This document shows positions 3,717 through 32,353 of a stretch of DNA of 64,000 nt, in pieces (positions within the stretch are counted from its first letter, which is position 1; each line of letters starts with the position of its first letter). A program made the translations under genes and the position numbers. The notes beneath the pieces are model-generated. The model saw only the letters and a list, made by a program, of their open reading frames with translations. It had not been told where the DNA came from and searched no databases. Location: the NCBI GenBank assembly GCA_040005235.1, contig JBDTZG010000004.1, forward strand, positions 32,001 through 96,000, given 5' to 3'. The DNA is from Acidobacteriota bacterium. GTDB taxonomy: Bacteria; Acidobacteriota; Thermoanaerobaculia; Multivoradales; UBA5704.

Positions 3717-3880
3717 CTAGAAGAGGGCGGCACCTATTTGGACCCCCTATTCGGACCGGAGCCGCGAGGTTGGAGCCCCAAGCTCGCCCGCTTCATGGGC
3801 TGTTTCAACTCGAGCTCGCCCGCCAGCAGCGGCGGGGAGTCCAAAGCGTCACCCCTCGCCACTGAAGGTCCCCTGCTCGC
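3717..3880 (+). pseudogene. Highly condensed relic of the RAYT-like transposase element
   Basis: End-motif variant CTAGAAGAGGGCGGCACCTATTT at 3717. CCCGCTTCATGGGCTGTTTCAACTCGA..GCTCGCCCGC matches ~13507-13545, and GGGAGTCCAAAGCGTCAC matches ~13702. Confidence 0.65.
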
Positions 3881-8159: not shown

Positions 8160-8762
8160 GGCTGGCCCGGGCCGCTTCTCAACGAGCGCGGGTTGAAGAC
8201 ATCGCCGAGTTGGTCGATGCGATCATTAAAAAAGCCGCCGCTCGGCGATCCGAGACTGGAATCGAACCCCTCGGCCCGGCAGCGATCCTCAAGCAACAGC
8301 AGTTCTCTCAACCGGCCAAGACCAAGAAGTCGCCCGCCCCGCTCGTCCACGCCGCCAGCAAACAGGTGCGGACCCAGATCAGGATCACCTACGATTGGTT
8401 TGTCCGGGCCTTCCGCGAGGCGGCGGAATTCCTGAGAGCTGGCGACCGGCAGGCGCGCTTTCCGCAAGGGTGCTTTCCGCCCGGGTTGCCGTTTGTTCGA
8501 GAGGGGCGGTTAGTAGCGATCATGCCGGCCACGTAGTCGGGGATCACCCGTTCAACGCAAAGCAGAGTCCTCTCGAAGTCCCGGCCGGTGGGCCGCGATT
8601 CGCCGCCCCGAGACCCCAAGTGCTTCGATTTTGGCCTCACTTCCTGCCAAGAGCTGGCTTACGCCAGGACCTCTCTACAGCTTCCGGACGCCGGGCGGAG
8701 TCTCTTCGCCTCGCGGTTGCCGCACTTCGAGCGGGGTCGCTCCACCTTTTAGGCACGTTTTG
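8160..8762 (+). mobile_element. RAYT-like HUH transposase remnant (copy 1) with 3' flank
   Basis: C-terminus KTKKSPAPLVHAASK...FREAAE.LRAGDRQARFPQGCFPPGLPFV is near-identical to the copies at 13.9 and 15.3 kb; several internal deletions. Confidence 0.8.
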
Positions 8763-9474: not shown

Positions 9475-10776
9475 ATGGGCAGTCACGGCAAGCATTGGGC
9501 TCCGGTGCTTTCGGGCGATTTGGCCAGAGAAGCGCTCGGAGCCGTTGATGACGTGGCAAAGGACCTCCGCCTCACTTTTTGCGCAGATCCCGCCGGCCCG
9601 GCTTGGTCGCACTTTTCTGAGCGCTACGGCTCGCTAAGTGGCGGTCAGGCCGGGCTGGCCCTATTCTTCTCCTACCTCGACCGTTCCCAGCCGGATCGAG
9701 GCAACGACGTAATCGCTGCAAATTGCCTTGACCGGGCGATCGAATGGATGTCTTCGGCAGAGACCAGCGTAGGCCTATTTACCGGATTTGCCGGCGTGGC
9801 TTGGGCTCTCGAGCACCTTCGCGCGGAGATCGTCGATCCGCAGGCCGAAGACTTGGGCGCGGATGTCGCCACATTTCTTTTGAAGCTGGCCGACGAAACG
9901 CCCTGGCAAGGGGAACTCGATCTTATCGAGGGGCTCGCTGGACTCTGCCTCTACGGCCTTGAACGCCTGCCGCTGCCCGACAGCCGGGAACTGATCGAGG
10001 CGACCGCCACGCGGCTTTACGAGGCCGCTGTGATTCGCGACGATGGATCGAGCTGGTTGACCGCGCCCGAGCGGCTGATTCCGATGCGCCGAGGTCAATA
10101 TCCAAACGGAAACTTCAATCTTGGGCTGGCGCACGGCGTACCTGGAATTGTCGGAGCGCTCGCCCTCGCTGAAGCCGCAGGAATCATTCAGCCCAAGAAT
10201 CAGCTCGTGCTGCGCGACGCGGTGCGATGGCTTCGTGGACAGAGACTCTCGCCAGGAGAGAGGTCGCAATTTCCTTCCTGGGTGGGTGGTACCCAACCGC
10301 CGCAGCCGACGCGTCTCGCATGGTGCTATGGCGATCTCGGAATCGCGCTCGCACTTCACGCTGCCGCACTCGCCATCGGCGAGGAGACTTGGGAGCAACT
10401 GGCGCTGGAAATCGCTCGGGGTGCCGCGGTGCGTCCCGCAGACACTTGCGATGTGGTCGATGCGGGTTTTTGTCACGGCGCCGCAGGCCTGGGCCATCAG
10501 TTCAATCGTCTTTTCCAGAAAACGGGAGACGAGCTGTTCAGAGAGGCGGCGGTCTACTGGCTGCGCCTTACGCTCGAGCTCAGGAGTCCGGGCGAAGGGG
10601 TCGGAGGTTTTCGCGCGCGGGGTCCTGATCGCGCCGATCAAGAGACTTGGCTGGCGGATCCGGGCCTTCTGACGGGGGCTGCAGGTGTGGGCCTCGCTCT
10701 CCTCTCGGCCGCAACAGACGTAGAGCCGAAATGGGATCGGTTGTTTCTATGCTCCGCGCGTGACGACGGGTCCTAA
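9475..10776 (+). CDS. lanC: Lanthionine synthetase C (LanC cyclase)
   Basis: GLAHG, WCYG and FCHG Zn/catalytic motifs plus GxxG repeats; probable ATG at 9475. Confidence 0.92.
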   Translation: MGSHGKHWAPVLSGDLAREALGAVDDVAKDLRLTFCADPAGPAWSHFSERYGSLSGGQAGLALFFSYLDRSQPDRGNDVIAANCLDRAIEWMSSAETSVGLFTGFAGVAWALEHLRAEIVDPQAEDLGADVATFLLKLADETPWQGELDLIEGLAGLCLYGLERLPLPDSRELIEATATRLYEAAVIRDDGSSWLTAPERLIPMRRGQYPNGNFNLGLAHGVPGIVGALALAEAAGIIQPKNQLVLRDAVRWLRGQRLSPGERSQFPSWVGGTQPPQPTRLAWCYGDLGIALALHAAALAIGEETWEQLALEIARGAAVRPADTCDVVDAGFCHGAAGLGHQFNRLFQKTGDELFREAAVYWLRLTLELRSPGEGVGGFRARGPDRADQETWLADPGLLTGAAGVGLALLSAATDVEPKWDRLFLCSARDDGS

Positions 10777-13238
10777 GCGCGACGGAGCAGGCTCAGGATG
10801 TCGAGGCGTACGGCCCTCCTCGCCGCGAGCAGGCTTGCCGCGAGCGCGATGCCAAGGAGGGTCAACGCGACGAGCGCAAGGGTCAGCCCGTCTCGCGGTC
10901 CGATTCCGAACAGCAGGCCGCGCAAGAGGCTGGAGACTGCGAGGGTCAGGGCAAGGCCGAGAACCACTCCTATCGCCACCGGTAAGAGGGCACGACCGAG
11001 GATGCCTCCGAGCAGCCTCCCGCGCGTCGAGCCCAGCGCCAAACGAACGCCGATTTCGAGGCGGGCGCTCGCAACGCTGTACGCCGTAAGGGTGAAAGTT
11101 CCCAGCGCGGCAAGGACCAGCGCCAAGACGGCGAAGAAAGCGGACAGCGCCGAGACGAAGCGCTCTCGAGCCAGCGATCGGGAGATCACCTCCCGCAGCG
11201 TTTTGATATCGGCAAAGGCAAGGTTGCGGTCGAGTGCTCCGAGTTGTCGGCGCATGGGCTGGGTCAGCGAACGAGGCGGGATCGTCGAACGGACGGTGAG
11301 CCTCATGGACCAAATCGGGGTTTGCAGATAGGAGGTAAAAACCTCGGGTCGAGCCGGTGCGCTTCCGCCCTCGAGCCTTTCGTCGCCGACGACTCCGACG
11401 ACCTGGTACCACGTACCGTCCCGGGCCTCGGGATCCTCCGCTAGCGAGATGCGGGACCCCAGCGGATTGGCACCGTGGAAGAGCTTCTTTTCGAGAGCGG
11501 CGTTGATGAGTGCAACCTGGGGAGCGGCCGCGACATCGCTCTCCGCCAGCAAGCGGCCCTTCAAGAGCGGCACCTTGAGAACGGCGAAATACCCTCCGCT
11601 CGCGATGCGATGGCTCGTCTCTACGACGCTCTCTCCCGAGGGGCGACCCTCCAGGTAAACGTCGACCGTCTCCTGGAGCCCTTGCGAAGGGAGAGCATCC
11701 ACCCAGCCTGATGCGACGACTCCTGGAAGCGCTTGGCTCCTTTCGAGAAAGAGATGAAAGAAAGAAGTGATTCGGGAAGGGGCGAAATATTCCGCCGGCG
11801 GCAGGGAGATGCGCGCGGTCAGTACTTGCTCGGGGTCGGCCCCCAGGTTCGCCCGCAGGAGATGTGTCTGGCTTTGCCCGAGCAGGACTGCGCTCGCGAC
11901 GAGAACCACGGCGAGAGCGACCTCCAGGACGACCAGCGCCGATTGCACCCGCTTGCCGCCGACATCGGAAGCTTCCTCAGCCAGGCCCATCGCGGCGGGG
12001 TGCTGCATCAGATGGACGGTGCGCAGAGTCGGAGCGATGCCGAGAAGCACGCCCGCCAACAAAGTGAGGAGAAACGCGAACCCTGCCGCGGTGCTGTCCC
12101 AGCCGATCTCGTTGAGTCGTGCTGCGCTTGGGGCCAGGTTCCGCAGAATGGAGAATGTCCAGGTGCCGAGAAACGTTCCAACACCTCCTCCGAGGAAAGA
12201 GAGAAGGAGCCCCTCGCAAAAAAGTTGCCGGCTCATGCGGAAGCGTCCGGCTCCCAGGGCCGTGCGGATGAAGATCTCTCGCCTGCGGCCCACGATCAGC
12301 GCCAGCTGTAGGATTCCCAGGTTCAGGCAGGCGATCAGCAGGACCATTCCCGCCGATCCGAGCGCCAACAGAAGAGGGCGCTGAAGGTTGCCTTGGATCC
12401 ATTCTTTGAGCGGCGTCAAACCGGGTCGTAGCGTGGCATTGGTGGTTGGAAATTCGCGGCTCAGCCGCTTGGCCACCGTCGCCAGATCGAGCTGCCCTTG
12501 CTGAAGCGAAATTCCCTTCCGGAGTCGTCCGATCGGGCGCAGGGAGTGGCCGCTACGAAAGTAAGGGTTCGTCACCTGGCTGGGCTGCCATTTGAAGGGC
12601 AGCCAAACATCCAGATCGGGAAACGGATAGGAGAAACCGTCCGGCATCACGCCGACGACGGTGCGCGAAATGCCGTCAATACGGACGGTCCGTCCTAGAA
12701 CTGCAGGATCTCCGCCCTGCCGGTGCCATAGCCCGTAGGAAAGGAGCACGACGGGAGAATGGCCCTCCCAGCTCTCCTCTTCGCGAAAGACTCTTCCGAT
12801 CAGGGGTTTCGCTTCGAGAACGGAGAAGAAGTTCCCATAGACCATCGCGCCGACGATGGATTGCGGCTCGCCTGCTCCTGACAGCGTCAGCTCGGTCGAC
12901 TGATCCGAGTGAGCGGTAATGTCGAGGAATGCCGACCGCGCTTGGCGATAGTCGAGGAAATCGGCGGGTGATACTTGGACGAATCGCCAATCTTTTTCGA
13001 GATCCTCTTCCCAAACCGCGACCAGCCGGTCGGAGTTGGGGAAGGGCAGGGGCCGAAGCAGCACCCCATTGACCGCTTGGAATACCGCAACGTTGGCGCC
13101 GATGCCCAGCGCCAGCGTGAGCGCCGCGCCAATAAGCTGGCCGAAACGGCGGCGATAAAAGCGCAGAGCGAAAAAAAAGTCTTGCGCCAGACCAAGCCTC
13201 CCCTGACCAGGCGATCGCGCAATTCTCCCATCCGGCAT
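10773..13238 (-). CDS. ADOP-family duplicated MacB/FtsX-type ABC permease
   Basis: QD..FALR...TLALGIGAN.AVF..VNGVLLRPLP; two FtsX halves (RRREI.IR.ALGA and EIGVRLALG). Confidence 0.9.
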   Translation of the reverse strand: MPDGRIARSPGQGRLGLAQDFFFALRFYRRRFGQLIGAALTLALGIGANVAVFQAVNGVLLRPLPFPNSDRLVAVWEEDLEKDWRFVQVSPADFLDYRQARSAFLDITAHSDQSTELTLSGAGEPQSIVGAMVYGNFFSVLEAKPLIGRVFREEESWEGHSPVVLLSYGLWHRQGGDPAVLGRTVRIDGISRTVVGVMPDGFSYPFPDLDVWLPFKWQPSQVTNPYFRSGHSLRPIGRLRKGISLQQGQLDLATVAKRLSREFPTTNATLRPGLTPLKEWIQGNLQRPLLLALGSAGMVLLIACLNLGILQLALIVGRRREIFIRTALGAGRFRMSRQLFCEGLLLSFLGGGVGTFLGTWTFSILRNLAPSAARLNEIGWDSTAAGFAFLLTLLAGVLLGIAPTLRTVHLMQHPAAMGLAEEASDVGGKRVQSALVVLEVALAVVLVASAVLLGQSQTHLLRANLGADPEQVLTARISLPPAEYFAPSRITSFFHLFLERSQALPGVVASGWVDALPSQGLQETVDVYLEGRPSGESVVETSHRIASGGYFAVLKVPLLKGRLLAESDVAAAPQVALINAALEKKLFHGANPLGSRISLAEDPEARDGTWYQVVGVVGDERLEGGSAPARPEVFTSYLQTPIWSMRLTVRSTIPPRSLTQPMRRQLGALDRNLAFADIKTLREVISRSLARERFVSALSAFFAVLALVLAALGTFTLTAYSVASARLEIGVRLALGSTRGRLLGGILGRALLPVAIGVVLGLALTLAVSSLLRGLLFGIGPRDGLTLALVALTLLGIALAASLLAARRAVRLDILSLLRRA

Positions 13239-13299: not shown

Positions 13300-14422
13300 G
13301 GCCGCCCCAAGGAGGTTCGCTCTACGAGGTGACCTGCCGCACCTTCCAGAGCCGGTTCCTCCTGTGGCCGGGTCCGCTGCTCAACGAGATCATCGTCGGC
13401 GACCTCGGCCGAGCGCAGCGCCTCTACCTGATCGACATCTGCGCGTTCTTTTTTGCCTCCAATCACTTCCACCTCTTAGCGCGGGTCGAAGACAGCGAGC
13501 GCCTCACCCGCTTCATGGGCTATTTCAACTCGAAGCTCGCCCGCGAGATCGCCCGATCGACCGGCTGGCGGGACAAGGTCTTCTCTCGCCGTTACCAGGC
13601 CATCCTCGTGAGCGACGAGGAAGAGGCTGGGTCGGGCGCCTGGTCTACATCCTTTCCCATGGCTGCAAAGAGAACCTGGTCGCCCGCCCCCAGGATTGGC
13701 CGGGAGTCCAATGCGTCACCGCCCTGCTCACCGGCCAGCCGATCGAGGGAACCTGGTTCGATCGCACCAAGGAATGGAAGGCGAGGGTAGGCGGGGAAGA
13801 GTTCGGCGTCCCGCAGTTCGCCGAAACGGAAGTCGTGAACCTCGCGCGCTTGCCCTGCTGGCAGCATCTCTCGGCGGAGCCGTACCGCGGCCGGATCGCC
13901 GAGTTGGTCGAGGCGATCCTCCGGCAGCAACCGTTTTCCCAGCCCGCTAATTAAGACGAAGAAGTCGCCCGCGCCACTCGTCCACGCCGCCTGCAAGCGG
14001 GTCCGTACCCAGATCAGGATCACCTACGCCTGGTTCGTTCGGGCCTTCCGCGAGGCGGCCGAGTACCCGAGAGGCCGGCGACCGGCAGGCGCGATTTCCC
14101 CAAGGATGCTTTCCGCCCGGCTTGCCGTTCGTTCGAGCGGGCCGGTAGGGAATCACACCGGCTACGTAGTCAACATCACCCGCTCAACTCGAAGCAGAGC
14201 ACGCTCGAAGTCCCGGCTGTCAGGCCTGTGGGCTGCGATTCGGCGCCTACGTGGCCGCCACGATCGTCAGCCGGCCCGATCTCCACCTCATTCACCGCCA
14301 TGGGCTGGCGGCGAAGGGGCTCCGTCTCCAACTTCCGGTTGCCACGAGGGGGCCTTTCGACACCCCTTTTCCGGGCTGCAGGCTTCGAGGTGTTCTTCTC
14401 CCAGAAGAGGGTGGCACCTTTT
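13300..14422 (+). mobile_element. RAYT-like (IS200/Y1 HUH) transposase pseudogene (copy 2) with 3' flank and end motif
   Basis: YEVTCRT...SNHFHLL (HUH)...FSRRY...YILSHGCKENLV..P.DWPG, broken by frameshifts; ends CCAGAAGAGGGTGGCACCTTTT at 14401-14422. Confidence 0.85.
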
Positions 14423-14519
14423 GGGGCGGGAGGACCGGGAGGACCACAACCACTCCTGCAAAAGCTTGAAGGGGTGCTAGGCTGCTTCCGTCGGCCACCT
14501 AACGGCTTAGGAGAACTAG

Positions 14520-14672
14520 ATGAAGAATGCAGCCAGGAAATTGACCCTCGCCAAAGAAACCCTCCTGTCCCTCAAGAAGCCAGACCTCACCCATGTGGCC
14601 GGAGGGAATAAGGCCGCGTCCTCTCAAGCATGGCCCGACGGCATCTGCCCGGACTCATACTGTTTCTGCTAG
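14520..14672 (+). CDS. Lanthipeptide-like precursor peptide 3 (50 aa, not in ORF track)
   Basis: AGGAGA RBS; MKNAARKLTLAKETLLSLKKPDLTHVAGG-NKAASSQAWPDGICPDSYCFC. Confidence 0.82.
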   Translation: MKNAARKLTLAKETLLSLKKPDLTHVAGGNKAASSQAWPDGICPDSYCFC

Positions 14673-14830
14673 AGAACTCCAGCGAGGTGCCTTGAAGCTT
14701 CCAAGGGCCCCGCCTGCTCCAACCCGAACTCCCTCTCTGCTCGTGTCCGGGTCGAGCAGAGAGATTCTGCACCTTCTGCGATTCGGGTTATTCCAGAACC
14801 GGCTGGCACGCTTTGCTGCGGGCTCTTCTC

Positions 14831-15773
14831 CCAGAAGAGGATGGCACCTTTTCCGGTTGGACAAGGTCTTCTCTCGCCGTTACCAGGCAATCCTCGTGAG
14901 CGACGAGGAAGAGGCCCAGGTCGGGCGCCTGGTCTACATCCTTTCTCATGTCTGCAAAGAGAACCTGGTCGCCCGACCCCAGGATTGGATTGGCCGGGAG
15001 TCCAATGCGTCACCGCCCTGCTCACCGGCCAGCTGATCGAGGGAACCTGGTTCGATCGCACCAAGGAATGGGAAGCCAGGCTTCGCGGCGAAGACTTCGG
15101 CGTCCGGCAGTTCGCCGAAACGGAAGTCGTGAACCTCGCCCCCTTGCCCTACTGGCGGCGTCTCTCGGCGGAGGAGTACCGCGACCGGATCGCCGAGTTG
15201 GTCGAGGCGATCGTTGAAAAAGCCGCAGCTCGGCGATCCGAGACGGGAATTGAACCCCTCGGCCGGGCAGCGATCCTCAAGCAGTACCCGTTCTCGCAGC
15301 CGACCAAGACCAAGAAGTCGTCGGCGTCGCTCGTCCACGCCGCCAGCAAACGGGTGCGTACCCAGATCAGGATCACCTACGCCTGGTTTGTTAGGGCCTT
15401 CCGCGAGGCAGCCGAGTACCTGAGAGCCGGCGACCGGCAGGCGCGCTTTCCGCAAGGATGCTTTCCGCCCGGCTTGCCGTTCGTTCGAGCGGGCCGGTTG
15501 GCGAGCACGCCGTCCACGTAGTCAGGATCACCCGCTCAACGCGAAACAGAGCCCGCTCGAAGTCCCGGCCGCTTGGCCGGTGGGCCGCGATTCGGCGTCT
15601 ACGTGGCCGGCACGATCGTCAGCCGACCCGATCTCCACCTCCTACCGCCATAGGCTGGCGGCGAAGGGGCTCCCTCTCCAACTTCCGGTTGCCACGAGAG
15701 GGCCTTTCGACCCCCTTTGCCGGGGCTGCTGCACTTCGAGGTGCTAGTCTCCCAGAAGAGGGTGGCACCTTTT
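14831..15773 (+). mobile_element. RAYT-like transposase remnant (copy 3, 5'-truncated), bracketed by end motifs
   Basis: Motif at 14831-14852 and 15752-15773; the coding part starts at DKVFSRRYQAIL and is frameshifted near 14990. Confidence 0.85.
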
Positions 15774-15774
15774 G

Positions 15775-15899
15775 GGTTCGATGAGCGGCGGTGGGAAACG
15801 GAACTGCGGCCGAGACTGAGGCACCGGCATCCACGCGAAAGCCGCCGGTCAACAGCGACTCCCTCGAACTACAGCCACCGCGCCCGCCGTCGGCTGTAC
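15775..15899 (+). mobile_element. Group II intron 3' remnant (3' half of DV plus DVI)
   Basis: GGTTCGATGAGCGGCGGTGGGAAACGG...CTACAGCCACCGCGCCCGCCG..CTGTAC, homologous to 17207-17325. Confidence 0.8.
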
Positions 15900-16159
15900 C
15901 CTTTTGCCGCACCTTTTGCCGGAACTTGCCGAGCTGTACGGCAAGCCTTTCCAGTTCTTCTTGGAGTAACAAAGGGCACAAGAAAAGAAAAATAGCCCCC
16001 AGATCTTCGGAGAGCTGCGCTGTTATCACCTGCAACATAGTGCTCAAAGATTTCGTGATCTGGATCCCAGCCACTCTATTAGCGAAGGCATGTTTATTGC
16101 TCCCGTATCTTCGTCTAGTCGGATGTCACGAAAGGCGCCTACTCTCGAAAAGAGGTTCT

Positions 16160-16423
16160 ATGAAAACCTTCGGTCTTCTTCTCTGCATGCTTCTAGTAGC
16201 CGGAACTCTGATGGCAACCCCAATTCTCGCTCCGACCGCGATTGAGGCCTCAGCCATCCCATCCCCTGATCTTCAGGCGATCTTCAGCAAGATGTCGTGT
16301 CAGACTAGTGCCGTCAACGACCCGGTAAACGAGAACGTATCGCCGTCGCAGTGCGGTCGTTGCTACTGCGACCCGGGACAGGCGTGCCATCTCTTTGCCG
16401 ACGGCTCGTGCAGCTGCGGCTAA
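16160..16423 (+). CDS. Small secreted Cys-rich peptide (signal, pro-region, Cys core)
   Basis: MKTFGLLLCMLLVAGTLMA...DLQAIF...QCGRCYCDPGQACHLFADGSCSCG; AGAGG RBS; followed by a hairpin. Confidence 0.7.
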   Translation: MKTFGLLLCMLLVAGTLMATPILAPTAIEASAIPSPDLQAIFSKMSCQTSAVNDPVNENVSPSQCGRCYCDPGQACHLFADGSCSCG

Positions 16424-16441
16424 CAAGCATTCCAGAACCAT

Positions 16442-16479
16442 CAGGCCAGCCCCGGGGGTCACCTCCTGGGGCTGGCTTG
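16442..16479 (+). terminator. Strong GC hairpin after the Cys-rich peptide gene
   Basis: CAGGCCAGCCCCGGGGG..CCTCCTGGGGCTGGCTTG inverted repeat; the U-tract is weak. Confidence 0.55.
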
Positions 16480-16514
16480 GTCATAGCTCTTCAACGTAGT
16501 GCCGAAGGTGCCAC

Positions 16515-17325
16515 GAGCGTCGGATGCGACGGCCGTGCCCTCCCCGGCCTCCCCAGGCCTCGACAGTTTCTCGTTGGAGCCGACCCTGCTGCCATAAAGG
16601 GAAGGCCGTCGGAGAGCGGGGGAGCAACCGACCGAAGAACCCGTTCTCTCCAACCGGGGCCGCCAGGCGGAAGCAAGTCTGGCGCTGGTCTCGCAATGGC
16701 TGGCGACGCTCGGTCTGACGATCCATCCCACCAAGACGCGCCTCTGTCAGGCCCGCGAAGAGCAGTTCGACTTCCTGGGCTACACCTTCGGTCCGGCACG
16801 GCACTGGCTGACCGGGAAGAGATTCCTCTCGGCCCGGCCCTCGAAGAAAGCCCAAAAGCGGCTCAAGGAAAAGATCAACGCTCTGGTCTATCGGGGCAAC
16901 CCCACGCCCTGGCCGGAGCTGCAAGCTCGGCTCAATCAGCTCCTGAAGGGCTGGGCCGGATACTTCAGCTTTGGCCACACTGGGCAGGCCGATACGGCTA
17001 TCCGGTGGCACGTCGCGGGACGGGTACGGCGGTTTCTCTGTCGTCGGCACAAGCTCCCTCCAGGAACCGGCCACTTTGGATTCAGCGAGGTGTACGGCAA
17101 GAAGGTGGGGGTGACCGACATCCGCCAGATGCGCCTGCAACGAAGGCCCGTGCATGCTCGCTTGTGAAGTCCGTCCGAGAGCCGGATGCGGGAGATCCGC
17201 ACGTCCGGTTCGATGAGCGGCGGTGGGAAACGGAGCTACGGTCAGGAGATTGAGGCACTCGCAACCGAAAGGGCGAGAAACAGATGGGCCTGACCTACAG
17301 CCACCGCGCCCGCCGCCGACTCTAC
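16515..17325 (+). mobile_element. Internally deleted group II intron (part of DI, C-terminal RT/maturase, DV, DVI)
   Basis: Frame 16643-17167 encodes VLSNRG...LGLTIHPTKT...FDFLGYTF...LNQLLKGWAGYF (RT6-7 and X domain; YADD deleted). DV GAGCCGGATGCGGGAGATCCGCACGTCCGGTTC at 17179-17211; the intron ends CTCTAC. Confidence 0.9.
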
Positions 17326-17464
17326 CCTTTTGACGGGAAGTTGGTGTATCTTGACGCCTCTAGATCCCGGATGCGCCTGCCCGTTGCGTGGAAGACGGCG
17401 TTCGCGCCTGTGGACTCGGAACCCACCGGGGTTCACTAGATCTGCGAAAGGAAGGAGGCTGTTT

Positions 17465-20440
17465 ATGCACCCTCGTGCGCTGTTCGCCGCCCTTTCCGCT
17501 GCCTTGAACCGTAGCTGTAGGCCGGTCCCACGAACGGCTGTGTCGATCCGCTCGCGATACGGCGCTTTCCTAGCATTCTTTTTCCTGGCAGCTGTTCCGG
17601 CCTTGCCGCAGGGCCATGCACAAGTCGAGTTCCTCACCTACCTGCCTCACACCGAAGCGAAGCTATCCGCACTGGTCAGCGGAATGCTGAGCGACAGAGA
17701 GGTCGAGGTGAACGTGTCACCTCTCCTAGATGGGAGCCATCGCCCGTTTCACCTCCAACTCCCTAATGGGGAGCAGTACCTGGTAACCGGTGCGCGTGAG
17801 GCTCTCAAGAATTCAAGGATATATACTTGGCAGGGGACTCTCTTGGTTTCCGGTGAGCGCGTAGGTCAAATCGTGATCAGCGTTCAGAACGGAGCCATCG
17901 CCGGGAAGATCTACACCAAAGAGGTGACTTACGTACTGTCTCCGCTCGGAAATGGCAGGGCAATCCTTTCACAACTCGACGATCCCGAGCCCTTGCCCTG
18001 TGGCGTCTCTCCTGAGGACGTCGTAATTGTTCGAGAGGGCAGTGACGGGGTCGCCTCAAGCCCTCCCTCGGTTTCTCCCTATGCTGAGGACGGCTCCATC
18101 ATTGACGTGCTCGTGTTCTACACGGCACAGGCACGCGAGATCGCTGGCGGGCGCGACAACGTCGAGTCCACTATCCTGATGGCTGTCAGCGACGCAAATC
18201 TCGCTTTCCAAAACAGCGAAGTCAGTACCCGTTTTAACCCGGTCGGCGTTCAAGAGATCGAGTACGAGGAGACCAGGAGCAGCGAAAGCGATTTGAATTG
18301 GCTAACGAACGACGACACCGTAGCTCAAATCCGGAACGAGCTTGCTGCCGACTTGGTTGGTATGGTGGTGTCCGTTATCGACGGCGATGGAGGGAGAGCG
18401 CGCATCATGGGACCCAACGACGTGGGCACCGGCTTTGCGCCCTATGCTTTCCAGGTCTCCGCCTGGAGTGGCCTGAATTTTCAAATTTTGGCTCATGAGT
18501 TCGGCCATTCTATGGGTGCCACTCATAATGTCGAGGTACCGGGTAGTGGTACTCCAGCTTTTCCTTACGGCCACGGTCATTACGTGGATGGCTCATTCCG
18601 GACCATCATGTCCTACCCAAACCTGGTTTATTGCCCGCACTCTTGCCCTGTGGTCCCGCATTTCTCTAATCCCGCGGTCGAAATAAATGGCGATCCGACC
18701 GGAGTGGCAGAGGAGCAGGATAACCACCGGGTTCTGAACCAGACGGCGGTCTATGTAGCGAACTTCCGAGTGCCTCTGCCCCGAACCCCGGAAAATGTTC
18801 AGGCATCGGACGGCACCTACATGGATCGCGTCCGAACCACGTGGAACTCTGTCGACAGGGCGGAGTTTTACGCGCTCTATCGCTCTGCCTCCACAACCGG
18901 CCCGAAGACGGCTATTGCGAGTTCCTTAGCTTTGACAAGCTTCGATGATACCTCGGCAATCGCGGGTACGACCTACTATTATTGGGTCAAGGCATCGAAC
19001 TCGGCTGGCTCAAGCAACCTCAGTCCCTACAACACTGGCTATCGCGCGGCGGCTCCTCCAGCGGCGCCGACGGGAGTTTCGGCAACGGATGGTGCTTACA
19101 CAGACCGCGTGCGGATCACCTGGAGCACGGTGTCCGGAACGACTTACTCCGTTTTCCGCGCGACCTCGACAAGCGGCGCTAAAACGTCCATCGCGACCTC
19201 CTTAACATCAACAAACTTCGATGACGCCTCGGTAATCGGGGGCACGACCTACTATTATTGGGTCAAGGCTTCGAACTCATCCGGTTCGAGTGACTTCAGT
19301 TCCTACAACACTGGCTATAGCGCGGTTGCTCCTCCAGCGGCACCTGCGGGGGTTTCGGCCACTGATGGCACCTACACAGACCGCGTGCGGATCACCTGGA
19401 ACGCGGTGTCCGGGGCGACGTACTCCGTCTTCCGAGCGACGTCGACAAGCGGCACCAAGACGACCCTCGCGACCTCCTTGACTGCGACCAGCTTGGATGA
19501 CACCTCGGCGGTCGCTGGCCAGACCTATTATTACTGGGTCAAAGCGATGAACTCATCCAGCTCGAGCGATTTCAGCTCCTACAACACCGGCTATCGCGCG
19601 GTTGCTCCCCCAGAGGCCCCGACGGGGGTTTCGGCTACTGACGGCACCTACACAGACCGTGTGTGGATCACCTGGAACGCGGTGTCTGGAGCCACGACGT
19701 ATTCCGTCTTCCGAGCCACGTCAACAAGCGGCGCCAAGACAACCATTGCAACCTCCTTAACGTCGGCCAGCTTCGATGACACCTCGGGAGCCGCGGGTAC
19801 GACCTATTATTACTGGGTCAAGGCATTGAATTCATCCGGCTCAAGCGACTTCAGTTCCTACAACGCTGGCTACCGTGCGGCTGCCCCTCCAGCGGCACCG
19901 ACGGGGGTTTCGGCAACAGATGGCTCGTACACAGACCGCGTGCGGATCACCTGGAACACGGTGTCTGGGGCGACTTATTTCGTCTACCGAGCGACCTCGA
20001 CAAGCGGCACCAAGACGACCATCGAAAACTCCTTAACTTCGACAAGTTTCGATGACACCTCGGCAGTCGCGGGTACGATCTACTATTATTGGGTCAAGGC
20101 ATCGAGTTCATCTGGCTCAAGTGACTTCAGTTCCTACAACACTGGCTATCGCGCGGTTGCTCCCCCAGTGGCACCGACTGGAGTTTCCGCAACCGATGGC
20201 ACTTACACAGACCGTGTGCGGATCACCTGGAACGCGGTCTCCGGAGCCTCCGGATACGTGGTTTATCGAGCGACATCAACGAGCGGGACCAAGACTGTCT
20301 TGGCATACTCATTGGCATTCACGAGCTTCGATGACACCTCGGCGATCGCGGGCACAACCTACTACTACTGGGTCAAGGCATCGAACTCATCCGGCTCAAG
20401 TGACTTAAGTTCTTACAACACCGGCTATCGGAGGAGATAG
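17465..20440 (+). CDS. Secreted M12 (reprolysin-like) metallopeptidase with six tandem FN3-like repeats
   Basis: HEFGHSMGATH metzincin motif and Met-turn RTIMSY; six ~92-aa repeats (P.GVSATDG.YTDRVRITW...YYYWVKA). Confidence 0.9.
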   Translation: MHPRALFAALSAALNRSCRPVPRTAVSIRSRYGAFLAFFFLAAVPALPQGHAQVEFLTYLPHTEAKLSALVSGMLSDREVEVNVSPLLDGSHRPFHLQLPNGEQYLVTGAREALKNSRIYTWQGTLLVSGERVGQIVISVQNGAIAGKIYTKEVTYVLSPLGNGRAILSQLDDPEPLPCGVSPEDVVIVREGSDGVASSPPSVSPYAEDGSIIDVLVFYTAQAREIAGGRDNVESTILMAVSDANLAFQNSEVSTRFNPVGVQEIEYEETRSSESDLNWLTNDDTVAQIRNELAADLVGMVVSVIDGDGGRARIMGPNDVGTGFAPYAFQVSAWSGLNFQILAHEFGHSMGATHNVEVPGSGTPAFPYGHGHYVDGSFRTIMSYPNLVYCPHSCPVVPHFSNPAVEINGDPTGVAEEQDNHRVLNQTAVYVANFRVPLPRTPENVQASDGTYMDRVRTTWNSVDRAEFYALYRSASTTGPKTAIASSLALTSFDDTSAIAGTTYYYWVKASNSAGSSNLSPYNTGYRAAAPPAAPTGVSATDGAYTDRVRITWSTVSGTTYSVFRATSTSGAKTSIATSLTSTNFDDASVIGGTTYYYWVKASNSSGSSDFSSYNTGYSAVAPPAAPAGVSATDGTYTDRVRITWNAVSGATYSVFRATSTSGTKTTLATSLTATSLDDTSAVAGQTYYYWVKAMNSSSSSDFSSYNTGYRAVAPPEAPTGVSATDGTYTDRVWITWNAVSGATTYSVFRATSTSGAKTTIATSLTSASFDDTSGAAGTTYYYWVKALNSSGSSDFSSYNAGYRAAAPPAAPTGVSATDGSYTDRVRITWNTVSGATYFVYRATSTSGTKTTIENSLTSTSFDDTSAVAGTIYYYWVKASSSSGSSDFSSYNTGYRAVAPPVAPTGVSATDGTYTDRVRITWNAVSGASGYVVYRATSTSGTKTVLAYSLAFTSFDDTSAIAGTTYYYWVKASNSSGSSDLSSYNTGYRRR
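18775..20430 (+). repeat. Six intragenic ~276-279 bp tandem repeats
   Basis: Repeat starts near 18775, 19055, 19331, 19607, 19885 and 20161. Confidence 0.9.
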
Positions 20441-31357: not shown

Positions 31358-32353
31358 ATGCGGAGCGAGCTCCAACTCTTTCCCGATGCGGCGTCGAGCC
31401 TGGCCGGCCAGGTCGACGGCCTCTATCTCGTGTGGGCGGCGGTCAGCGTCTTCTTCTCGCTCCTGATCGCGGTGTTGCTGGTCTTCTTCTTCGTCAAATA
31501 CAAGCGCCGCAACGAAGACGACATCGGCCAAGAAGAGCGCGAGGCGCCGCTGCTCGAGATCGCCTGGTCGGTGATCCCGTTGCTCATCTGCCTGGTGATG
31601 TTCGTTTGGGGCACGCGCGTCTTTTTCGACATCTACCGGCCCCCCGGAAACGCCCAGGAATACTTCGCGGTCGGCAAGCAGTGGATGTGGAAGTTCCAGC
31701 ATCCGGAAGGGGTGCGGGAGATCAACGACCTCCACGTGCCGGTCGGCCAGGCGATCAAGGTGACGATGACCTCGGAGGACGTGATCCACAGCCTCTACGT
31801 GCCGGCGTTCCGCACCAAGCAGGACGCGGTGCCCGGGCGCTACACGACGCTCTGGTTCAAGGCGACCAAGGCGGGGACCTACCACTTGTTTTGCGCCGAG
31901 TACTGCGGCACCGAGCATTCCAGGATGATCGGCCACCTGATCGCGATGGAACCGCGCGATTACGAGCAATGGCTCAGCGGCAGCCCGGCGGGGAAGACCC
32001 CAGTCGCCTCCGGCGCTCAGCTGTTCGAAACCTTTGCCTGCAATACTTGCCATCGCGACGCCAAGGACCCGCGACCTGCGCGCGCGCCGCAGCTCGCCGG
32101 GCTCTACGGCCGAGACGTGACGTTCGCCGACGGCGGGAGCGCGAAGGCCGACGACACCTATCTGCGCGAGTCGATCCTCAATCCGGGCGCCAAGCTGGTC
32201 GCCGGCTGGCAGCCGATCATGCCGACGTTCCAGGGACAGATCAGTGAAGAACAGCTCGCCGCCCTGCTCGCCTACATCAAGTCTCTGGAAGGTACCCCAC
32301 AGCAGGCTTCGGCCGACGGCAACGGCGCCGCAGCCGACCGAGGGACGCTATGA
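31358..32353 (+). CDS. coxB: Cytochrome c oxidase subunit II with fused cytochrome c (caa3)
   Basis: QWMW, DVIHS and [12 protein letters not shown] (CuA), plus C-terminal CNTCH. Confidence 0.95.

Follow-up and report, generated by a model that had tools for sequence, protein, structure and literature searches.

Junctions in sister genomes point to homing of a group II intron into the right-end repeat of a multicopy HUH transposon in Acidobacteriota

The 64,000-nucleotide stretch analysed here (the window; positions 32,001 to 96,000 of contig JBDTZG010000004.1, assembly GCA_040005235.1, from an Acidobacteriota bacterium of the Thermoanaerobaculia) is a graveyard of two nested mobile elements, an HUH transposon and a group II intron. 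From comparison with 92 genomes of the same bacterial family (G numbers denote genomes and L numbers individual loci, G000 being the genome of the window and g1 its genus), we consider it probable that the intron homes into the repeat at the right end of the HUH transposon, its main home within g1, and that other TGGCA^CCT sites (^ marks the point of insertion) are used too. This is directly supported by the anatomy of the element, the junctions, the covariation of the intron's exon-binding site 1 (EBS1) with the 5' exon and the clean interruption of a repeat by an intact intron in G016.

In that genome (locus L032) an intact intron of 2037 nt, with a 442-aa open reading frame (ORF) containing the YADD motif, splits the repeat as GGTTAGGCTGGCA^CCTATTTGGGGGCACCTATTCC, 246 nt downstream of an HUH gene. 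The same 5' junction is found in G015 (L037), 235 nt after an HUH gene, and in G012 (L036), where an internally deleted copy occupies a solo repeat with no gene nearby. Thus all three 5' junctions available in g1 (L032, L036, L037) lie inside HUH right-end repeats, and CCT[AT]T opens each of the eight different 3' junctions in the genus, four of which continue with an iterated repeat unit. Full-length introns divide the repeat between TGGCA and CCT, with the repeat resuming past the intron 3' end, at L032, L015, L016 and L021. Such a clean split is impossible for an inserting transposon, and it is one reason why we consider reverse causality, in which the HUH element inserts at or into the intron, or near CCTATTCC-like sequence at intron 3' ends, to be very improbable; the pairing that predicts the exact junction also covaries, as described below. 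What speaks for reverse causality is that HUH elements form head-to-tail arrays and that intact repeats lie right against intron fragments lacking their 5' part, in the window (15752-15776, followed by 15775-15899), at L097 and L099, and again at L113, L114, L116, L117 and L120. These fragments often begin 2–45 nt past an uninterrupted repeat and then run into a CCT exon of their own, a layout shared by window remnant 1 (15752-15899), L097, L099 and the latter five loci, which are five of nine further fragments with a captured start; at L012 the fragment starts right after an internal GGCA, beside the target TGGCA. Deletion adjacent to a transposon end, abortive reverse transcription via microhomology, or HUH insertion into an intron are all possible causes of these truncated fragments.

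Across the family, 44 5' junctions have 573 nt or more of flank, and in 8 of these an HUH C-terminus is located 215–454 nt upstream on the strand of the intron; at one further junction the distance is 1176 nt, and at two others the HUH gene is on the opposite strand. All eight gene-adjacent insertions are at the right end and on the strand of the gene, the left end having the same core on the other strand, in keeping with read-through from the HUH gene as the source of expression, with a replication-strand bias, or with the two together. Like L036, L014 has a repeat-type 5' exon and no gene nearby; over 40 nt this exon shares 80% identity with the one at L015, which is next to an HUH gene. L034, L022 and L046 carry an inverted motif 62–67 nt upstream, forming a REPIN-like doublet, and a retargeted copy (L041) lies directly after an inverted motif. 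The GCAC[CT]T unit occurs within +4 to +45 in 13 of 42 distinct 3' junctions compared to 359 of 20000 random CCT sites in G000 (1.8%), a 17-fold enrichment. Every one of the 27 genomes with an intron 5' end carries an HUH gene, and none of the 15 HUH-free genomes has an intron 5' end. Empty repeats far outnumber occupied ones, as the copy numbers per genome given below show. Among public HUH loci we counted 18 empty ends and two occupied at the expected distance, the latter with the same junctions as L037 and L032, although this count is silent on conservation of the core since the search pattern required it.

The host element is represented on contig C18 of G000 by an intact 320-aa gene, in the translation of which an HFH triplet is visible. 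The protein scores 23.4 bits against the Pfam Y1_Tnp (IS200-like) model (cut-off 23) and 39.7 bits (E 4e-10) against the NCBIfam model REP_Tyr_transpos NF047646, below that model's cut-off of 80, and a search by sequence found no close solved structure for it. Its length is 305–320 aa across copies, and its close public relatives are from Thermoanaerobaculia, Holophagales and Acidobacteriota metagenome-assembled genomes (MAGs). Among 16 full copies an inverted motif, GGAATAGGTGCCACCCTAACC, is present 120–290 nt upstream of the gene in nine, and a direct motif, GGTTAGGNTGGCACCTATTCC, 222–261 nt downstream in 11; this layout identifies the motif as the inverted repeat at the termini of an element of approximately 1.5 kb. 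The end repeats are about 21 bp long, and the right end (GGTTAGGNTGGCACCTATTCC) has the local variant CCAGAAGAGGRTGGCACCTTTT in the window. The conserved core is TGGCACCT; a local variant present in the window is AAGAGGRTGGCACCTTTT. The 22-nt motif CCAGAAGAGGRTGGCACCTTTT is exact at 14401, 14831 and 15752, as the initial annotation of the window had reported, with a three-mismatch variant at 3717, compared to 0.00 occurrences expected (100 shuffles). At HUH ends there are often additional partial units of the repeat, iterated between one and three times (GCACCTATTCC...), left ends showing the mirror image, and the elements form head-to-tail arrays with a spacing of approximately 1.7–2.1 kb, upstream of the window on contig C35 (at 2496, 4637, 6458 and 8173) and at 18–30 kb on C18.

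Of the 92 genomes of the family, 77 have a match to the HUH protein, and G000 has 20 (matches were scored up to 24 per genome, so that the top counts are at least 24). The repeat pattern AGGNTGGCACCTWT has 17 copies in G000 and 33, 13, 15, 14 and 2 in five congeners, with none for the reversed control. The initial annotation described a REP-like multicopy transposon end (REP, repetitive extragenic palindromic); the multicopy terminal inverted repeat is real, but it occurs in tens per genome and is tied to a multicopy gene rather than being dispersed in hundreds as REPs are. Of ten HUH loci with apparent internal stops that were fetched, nine have a single natural stop at aa 304–309 and the tenth (L101) has no stop other than the one in its third codon, immediately before the protein match begins, and recoding of HUH genes was rejected on these grounds.

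The intron's target is well defined. From the 47 5' ends that we collected, representing 45 distinct 5' exons, the last five exon bases are T in 39, G in 44, G in 38, C in 41 and A in 42, and the 3' exon begins with C (20), C (17) and T (17) in the 21 copies with both ends, with little conservation further on; the 5'-end pattern itself gave 43 matches in 27 of the 92 genomes and none for the reversed control. With two mismatches allowed, matches to the 3'-end pattern in five congeners equalled the reversed control, and only three exact matches were used. A second signal, attributable to intron-binding site 2 (IBS2), lies at -13 to -9 with the consensus GAARY (G 19, A 35, A 29, G/T 35, C/T 36 of 45), and is complementary to GTTTC, an almost invariant sequence within an internal loop that immediately precedes the EBS1 hairpin. 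The hairpin CCCT-GCTGCCATAA-AGGG of the window (16584-16601, with TGCCAT at 16590-16595), in which the initial annotation saw EBS1, corresponds in a consensus fold of relatives (116 pairs, 14 with compensatory changes) to the distal hairpin of the Id arm, with TGCCAT as its loop. In 26 copies 145 of 156 positions of EBS1 and IBS1 pair, compared to 127.2 +/- 3.1 when shuffled, and none of 5000 shuffles reached 145; pairing at positions -1 to -6 is 26, 26, 26, 25, 25 and 17 of 26. In two copies EBS1 and exon have both changed, with full compensation (CAGGGT paired to ACCCTG, GGGAAA to TTTCTC), and G/A–C/U changes between EBS1 and exon are also seen at -3. This covariation with the 5' exon identifies the TGCCAT loop as EBS1, and in relatives most 5' exons end in TGGCA and most 3' exons start with CCT; neither of the outcomes that the initial annotation had named as refuting its reading was observed. 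Alignment column 100 is G in 15 copies and U in L053, the sole copy with a 3' exon starting with A, and this single event hints that the column may be EBS3.

The same data bear on whether two unrelated decaying elements simply happen to lie together and to be complementary over 6 nt by accident. Fragments of many kinds are densely packed in this part of the window, and a 6-nt match is by itself weak evidence, but the identical junction recurs in other genomes and genera and the covariation is significant, so that we find chance co-location scarcely credible.

A more serious alternative is opportunistic matching, in which the intron enters any GAARY-N3-TGGCA^CCT sequence and HUH ends merely make up a sizeable share of the sites, with no co-evolution or dependence. 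Several observations weigh in this direction, or otherwise against homing to the repeat. No HUH gene lies within 1.3 kb of 36 of the 44 5' junctions, and some 3' exons (L024, L029) resemble normal coding sequence, so that the homing into HUH ends advanced in the initial annotation is supported by junctions in sister genomes but is not exclusive to such ends, look-alike sites without an HUH gene being used as well. Of 142 TGGCACCT sites in G000, 17 (12%) show the fuller repeat pattern, a proportion not far below the family-wide repeat-borne share, and outside g1 that share (roughly 20–30%) may barely exceed availability. Copies with an altered EBS1 at unrelated sites (L041, L053, L054) show ordinary retargeting. 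The g1 repeat (GGGTTAGGCTGGCA) does not pair with EBS2, and phylogeny confounds the co-occurrence of intron and HUH gene, since two genera supply 14 of the 15 genomes that lack the latter. L032 and L037 share 79% identity in their upstream flanks, and the 3' flanks of the window remnants have nine of their first ten bases in common; some g1 junctions may therefore descend from one insertion, and not all events are independent. G000 has no copy with a 5' end and no assembled intact intron, and a requirement for a structured target was dropped because single-stranded DNA (ssDNA) folding of five repeat contexts gave no significant hairpin (z = -1.0, -0.7, -2.3, +0.9 and -0.3; four of the five fold no better than shuffles). 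Finally, our observations are of sequence, and what we say of mobility, splicing and strand bias is inferred at most.

Against opportunistic matching, the three 5' and eight 3' junctions of g1 are all of repeat type compared to an availability of 12%, the gene-adjacent insertions are all at the right end and on the gene's strand though the left end has the same core, and the iterated unit is enriched in 3' flanks to the extent given above. In addition, UGCCA is conserved as the core of EBS1 in 23 of the 26 copies scored across five genera, despite each non-repeat site being unique, which suggests a stable reservoir target. On balance we regard opportunistic matching as rather unlikely, and homing into the HUH right end, with some use of look-alike sites, as the better account.

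Under homing to the repeat, the intron RNA would recognise DNA by two pairings, EBS1 (UGCCAN) with NTGGCA and EBS2 (GUUUC) with GAARY at -13 to -9, and would also require CCT at the start of the 3' exon. Reverse splicing between TGGCA and CCT would then place the intron in the right-end repeat, about 240 nt past the HUH gene and in the same orientation. Reverse splicing into single-stranded DNA with priming by nascent strands is established for other introns without an endonuclease, and here integration probably likewise takes place into transiently single-stranded or fork DNA with nascent strands as primers. The intron might be expressed by read-through from the HUH gene, and the HUH enzyme, by keeping the core of the repeat constant, could provide a stable target. 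The intron splits the repeat approximately 8 nt from its outer end, and because splicing leaves the DNA unrepaired, the transposon can probably no longer use an end that is occupied. Since splicing cannot rescue the host element, the two parasites would be in real conflict.

A more far-reaching proposal can be made only tentatively, and we think it possible rather than likely: that the intron is a hyperparasite, its lineage locked onto the most constrained 8 bp of the HUH repeat (TGGCA^CCT, perhaps the transposase's own recognition or cleavage site) as a permanent reservoir neutral to the host. In this scheme the split repeat would disable the transposon end, so that the intron sterilises its host element, expression would come via the HUH read-through transcript, both elements would exploit single-stranded lagging-strand DNA, and 5'-truncated copies abutting intact repeats would be scars of conflict between the elements.

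The identity of the intron is clear from Rfam RF00029 (domains V and VI, DV and DVI), which matches window positions 17177-17325 with 45.6 bits (gathering score 40) and also three relatives, and from RF02003 (group-II-D1D4-4), which matches three relatives at 85–91 bits (gathering score 49). The ribozyme appears to be IIB-like, although the only class label established is that of Rfam D1D4-4. Full-length copies in relatives are 2017–2042 nt long (about 2.04 kb) and begin with GTGCG, and seven of ten that we examined have ORFs of 441–481 aa with YADD. The 441-aa protein of L013 matches the reverse transcriptase (RT) domain RVT_1 (150 bits) and the maturase domain GIIM (41 bits), the latter also detected in window remnant 2, and Pfam found no endonuclease domain in it, nor anything beyond RVT_1 and GIIM. 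The closest solved structures are 7uim (E 8e-57), which carries only the name 'group II intron reverse transcriptase/maturase', and the GsI-IIC RT 6ar1 (E 1e-56); among relatives in plasmid records the best is from Bradyrhizobium japonicum (58% identity), with a Sinorhizobium meliloti pSymB protein at 36%. A DNA search of the 92 genomes gave intron matches in 72, many to the DV region only, and full-length and ORF-less relatives are among these matches.

Four ORF-less derivatives of 827–842 nt, L015 (G066), L016 (G048), L017 (G091) and L062 (G028), come from four genomes in three genera; they keep the whole ribozyme and share a similar internal deletion, two sit in HUH right ends, and this suggests a non-autonomous lineage mobilised in trans. 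G000 also contains another group II intron, distinct from the first and carrying a long RT ORF, which is split over the last ~1.7 kb of contig C11 and the first ~300 nt of C82, whose ends overlap; it has an identical 36-nt DV stretch to the window intron and other flanks.

In G000 the first intron survives as three truncated copies, two in the window and one on C18, which still carry repeat-type 3' exons, and in the assembled genome it appears to have died out. The GTGCG 5' end and the fold of domains I–IV are present in relatives, the window copies lacking a 5' end. Remnant 2 is both 5'-truncated and internally deleted, with approximately 1030 nt of ORF gone between 16659 and 16660 relative to relatives; it retains about 105 nt of domain I (16554-16659, 87–93% identical to the same domain in full-length relatives), the last third of the protein, and DV/DVI, in which pairing of DVI with a bulged A at 17319 is predicted. 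Most sequence statements of the initial annotation are borne out in the window, including the ends of remnant 1 (...GGCTGTAC at 15899) and remnant 2 (...GACTCTAC at 17325), each followed directly by CCTTTT. An inverted copy of the element motif had also been proposed at 16505-16514; AAGGTGCCAC is present there, one of the 142 TGGCACCT sites of G000, but it aligns, with several changes, to the intron domain I hairpin GGTGCAAC-CGAGG of relatives, and the proposed inverted motif was rejected in favour of diverged intron sequence. The window as a whole holds two decayed HUH copies (A and B) and three intact, unoccupied end repeats (Table 1). The right-end region of copy A is 87.6% identical to 15270-15776 (blastn), the isolated repeat between the copies is fused directly to truncated copy B, and the layout of the 3' exon of remnant 1 is also found at empty HUH ends elsewhere.

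Table 1. HUH transposon copies, end repeats and intron remnants in the window. Window positions 8201-8533 are 40201-40533 of contig C35.
Feature	Position	Strand	Remarks
Degenerate HUH end repeat (CTAGAAGAGGGCGGCACCTATT)	3717..3738	+	3 mismatches to 22-nt motif
HUH gene C-terminal fragment, aa 211-320	8201..8533	+	tblastn
Degenerate end repeat GGCACGTTTT	8752-8761		~220 nt downstream of HUH fragment 8201..8533
HUH copy A coding region, internal deletion/frameshift	13303..14214	+	blastn 84% and 75% to intact C18 element; tblastn, two pieces
Copy A right-end region, repeat motif 14401-14422 at its end	14215..14425	+	empty target GTGGCA^CCTTTT
Isolated 29-nt end repeat, motif 14831-14852	14824..14852	+	empty target ATGGCA^CCTTTT; 96.6% identical to 14394-14422
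HUH copy B, 5'-truncated, ~aa 103 to stop	14859..15566	+	blastn 78% to C18 element positions 601-1301; tblastn
Copy B right-end region, motif 15752-15773	15567..15776	+	empty target; TGGCA ~242 nt past stop codon
Intron remnant 1, last DV bases and mutated DVI	15775..15899	+	76.6% identical to 17207-17335
Remnant 1 3' exon CCTTTTGCCGCACCTTTTGCC	15900..15921	+	3' half of end repeat and one iterated partial unit
Intron remnant 2, domain I fragment	16507..16659	+	16554-16659 secure; 16507-16553 weak similarity
EBS2 GTTTC (remnant 2, domain I)	16566-16570	+
EBS1 loop TGCCAT (remnant 2, domain I)	16590-16595	+	hairpin 16584-16601
Remnant 2 protein C-terminus, end of RT domain and maturase/X domain	16660..17167	+	stop 17165-17167; GIIM match 16856-17056
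Remnant 2 DV (17179-17211) and extended DVI	17177..17325	+	Rfam RF00029; 3' splice site after 17325
Remnant 2 3' exon CCTTTT	17326..17331	+	fits local end-repeat variant

Other features of the region include a 50-aa ORF between the HUH copies (14520-14672, + strand), with a leader ...LTHVAGG followed by a Cys-rich 21-aa core, the product of which resembles a double-glycine-leader peptide precursor and has no family in Pfam. Between the intron remnants is an 87-aa ORF (16160-16423, + strand) whose product resembles a signal peptide at its N-terminus and is rich in Cys at its C-terminus; after the ORF, near 16443-16480, comes an inverted repeat that is GC-rich. Host genes on either side are 17330-20440 (+ strand), a 1036-aa ORF with a reprolysin-like M12B peptidase and fibronectin type III domains, and 10773-13238 (- strand), an 821-aa MacB/FtsX-type permease. 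Pfam returned no family for four of six truncated ORFs of the window.

These results give a defined natural target, GAARY-N3-TGGCA^CCT, for a compact intron without an endonuclease, of which there are an apparently intact copy (G016, L032) and ORF-less derivatives of ~840 nt. The refuge of the intron would be the DNA-level end repeat of an HUH/Y1 transposon, not a gene, and this bears on how introns persist in bacteria without harm to the cell. The two elements also account for a class of repeats, pseudogene fragments and contig breaks in Thermoanaerobaculia-type MAGs, and the comparison describes a large, unnamed family of HUH transposons present in 77 of 92 genomes.

The initial annotation suspected that this targeting niche had not been described. 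In the literature that we searched, which excluded subscription journals and supplements so that an earlier description is possible, we found no account of an intron homing into an HUH, RAYT (REP-associated tyrosine transposase) or IS200 end, and no paper joining 'group II introns' with 'REP-associated tyrosine transposase'; homing into mobile elements, however, is already a known habit of introns.

A RAYT is by definition a single-copy domesticated gene accompanied by hundreds of dispersed REPs. Like RAYT/REP systems and IS200/IS605 elements, the element described here has an HUH/Y1 protein flanked by inverted, short, partly palindromic motifs, with REPIN-like doublets (L034). It differs from RAYTs in that the gene is multicopy (20 matches in G000), the repeat is present in tens, the protein has a C-terminal extension of ~170 aa and its score is below the RAYT-model cut-off; it thus shares the inverted flanks of that group and not the single gene with hundreds of REPs. 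IS200/IS605 elements have no terminal inverted repeats, carry subterminal hairpins and insert 3' of a fixed tetra- or pentanucleotide. The HUH element has inverted terminal motifs, and its hairpin stability is not significant. A link between group II introns and the short palindromic repeats of the RAYT world has a precedent in one table row for Pseudomonas putida KT2440, which lists 938 REPs and two of nine group II intron copies as REP-associated (PMC1525189). That precedent is a single table line with no junction analysis, and its REPs are dispersed in hundreds, in contrast to a repeat attached to a multicopy HUH gene. IStrons, as described in PMC4227781, are chimeras of a group I intron and an insertion sequence (IS), and like the present case physically combine a ribozyme with a DNA transposon. 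They are, however, one composite moved by a transposase, whereas here the elements are separate and the intron would be moved by its own RT.

Class C (IIC) introns insert after terminator stem-loops. Like the intron described here they target the recombination site or structured site of another element, have no endonuclease and are compact; a part of PMC7923331 links them with integron attC sites and remarks that ssDNA-dependent elements cluster. The combination of no EBS2 with a stem-loop target and a short IBS1 that marks class C is not found in the present intron, which has an EBS2/IBS2 signal, a 33-nt DV (17179-17211) and a match to Rfam D1D4-4, and which inserts within the repeat, not after a stem-loop, at a target hairpin that is not significantly stable. 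The protein of RmInt1 from S. meliloti has no endonuclease domain, like that of the intron here, and the RmInt1 site is located in a transposase reading frame. Its natural homing site is in ISRm2011-2, and ectopic insertions occur at oxi1, according to sections of PMC4496777. In both cases a group II intron is at home in a multicopy mobile element, look-alike sites are used ectopically and copies decay and fragment. RmInt1 differs in lying inside an IS630-family element, whereas here the intron enters a sequence that functions at the level of DNA, the terminal inverted repeat of an HUH/Y1 element, and the proteins are distant (36% identity, if the S. meliloti pSymB match is, as we assume, the RmInt1 protein). 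Homing into another mobile element is therefore known from RmInt1 and from IIC introns at attC sites, and the refuge in an HUH end is an added case.

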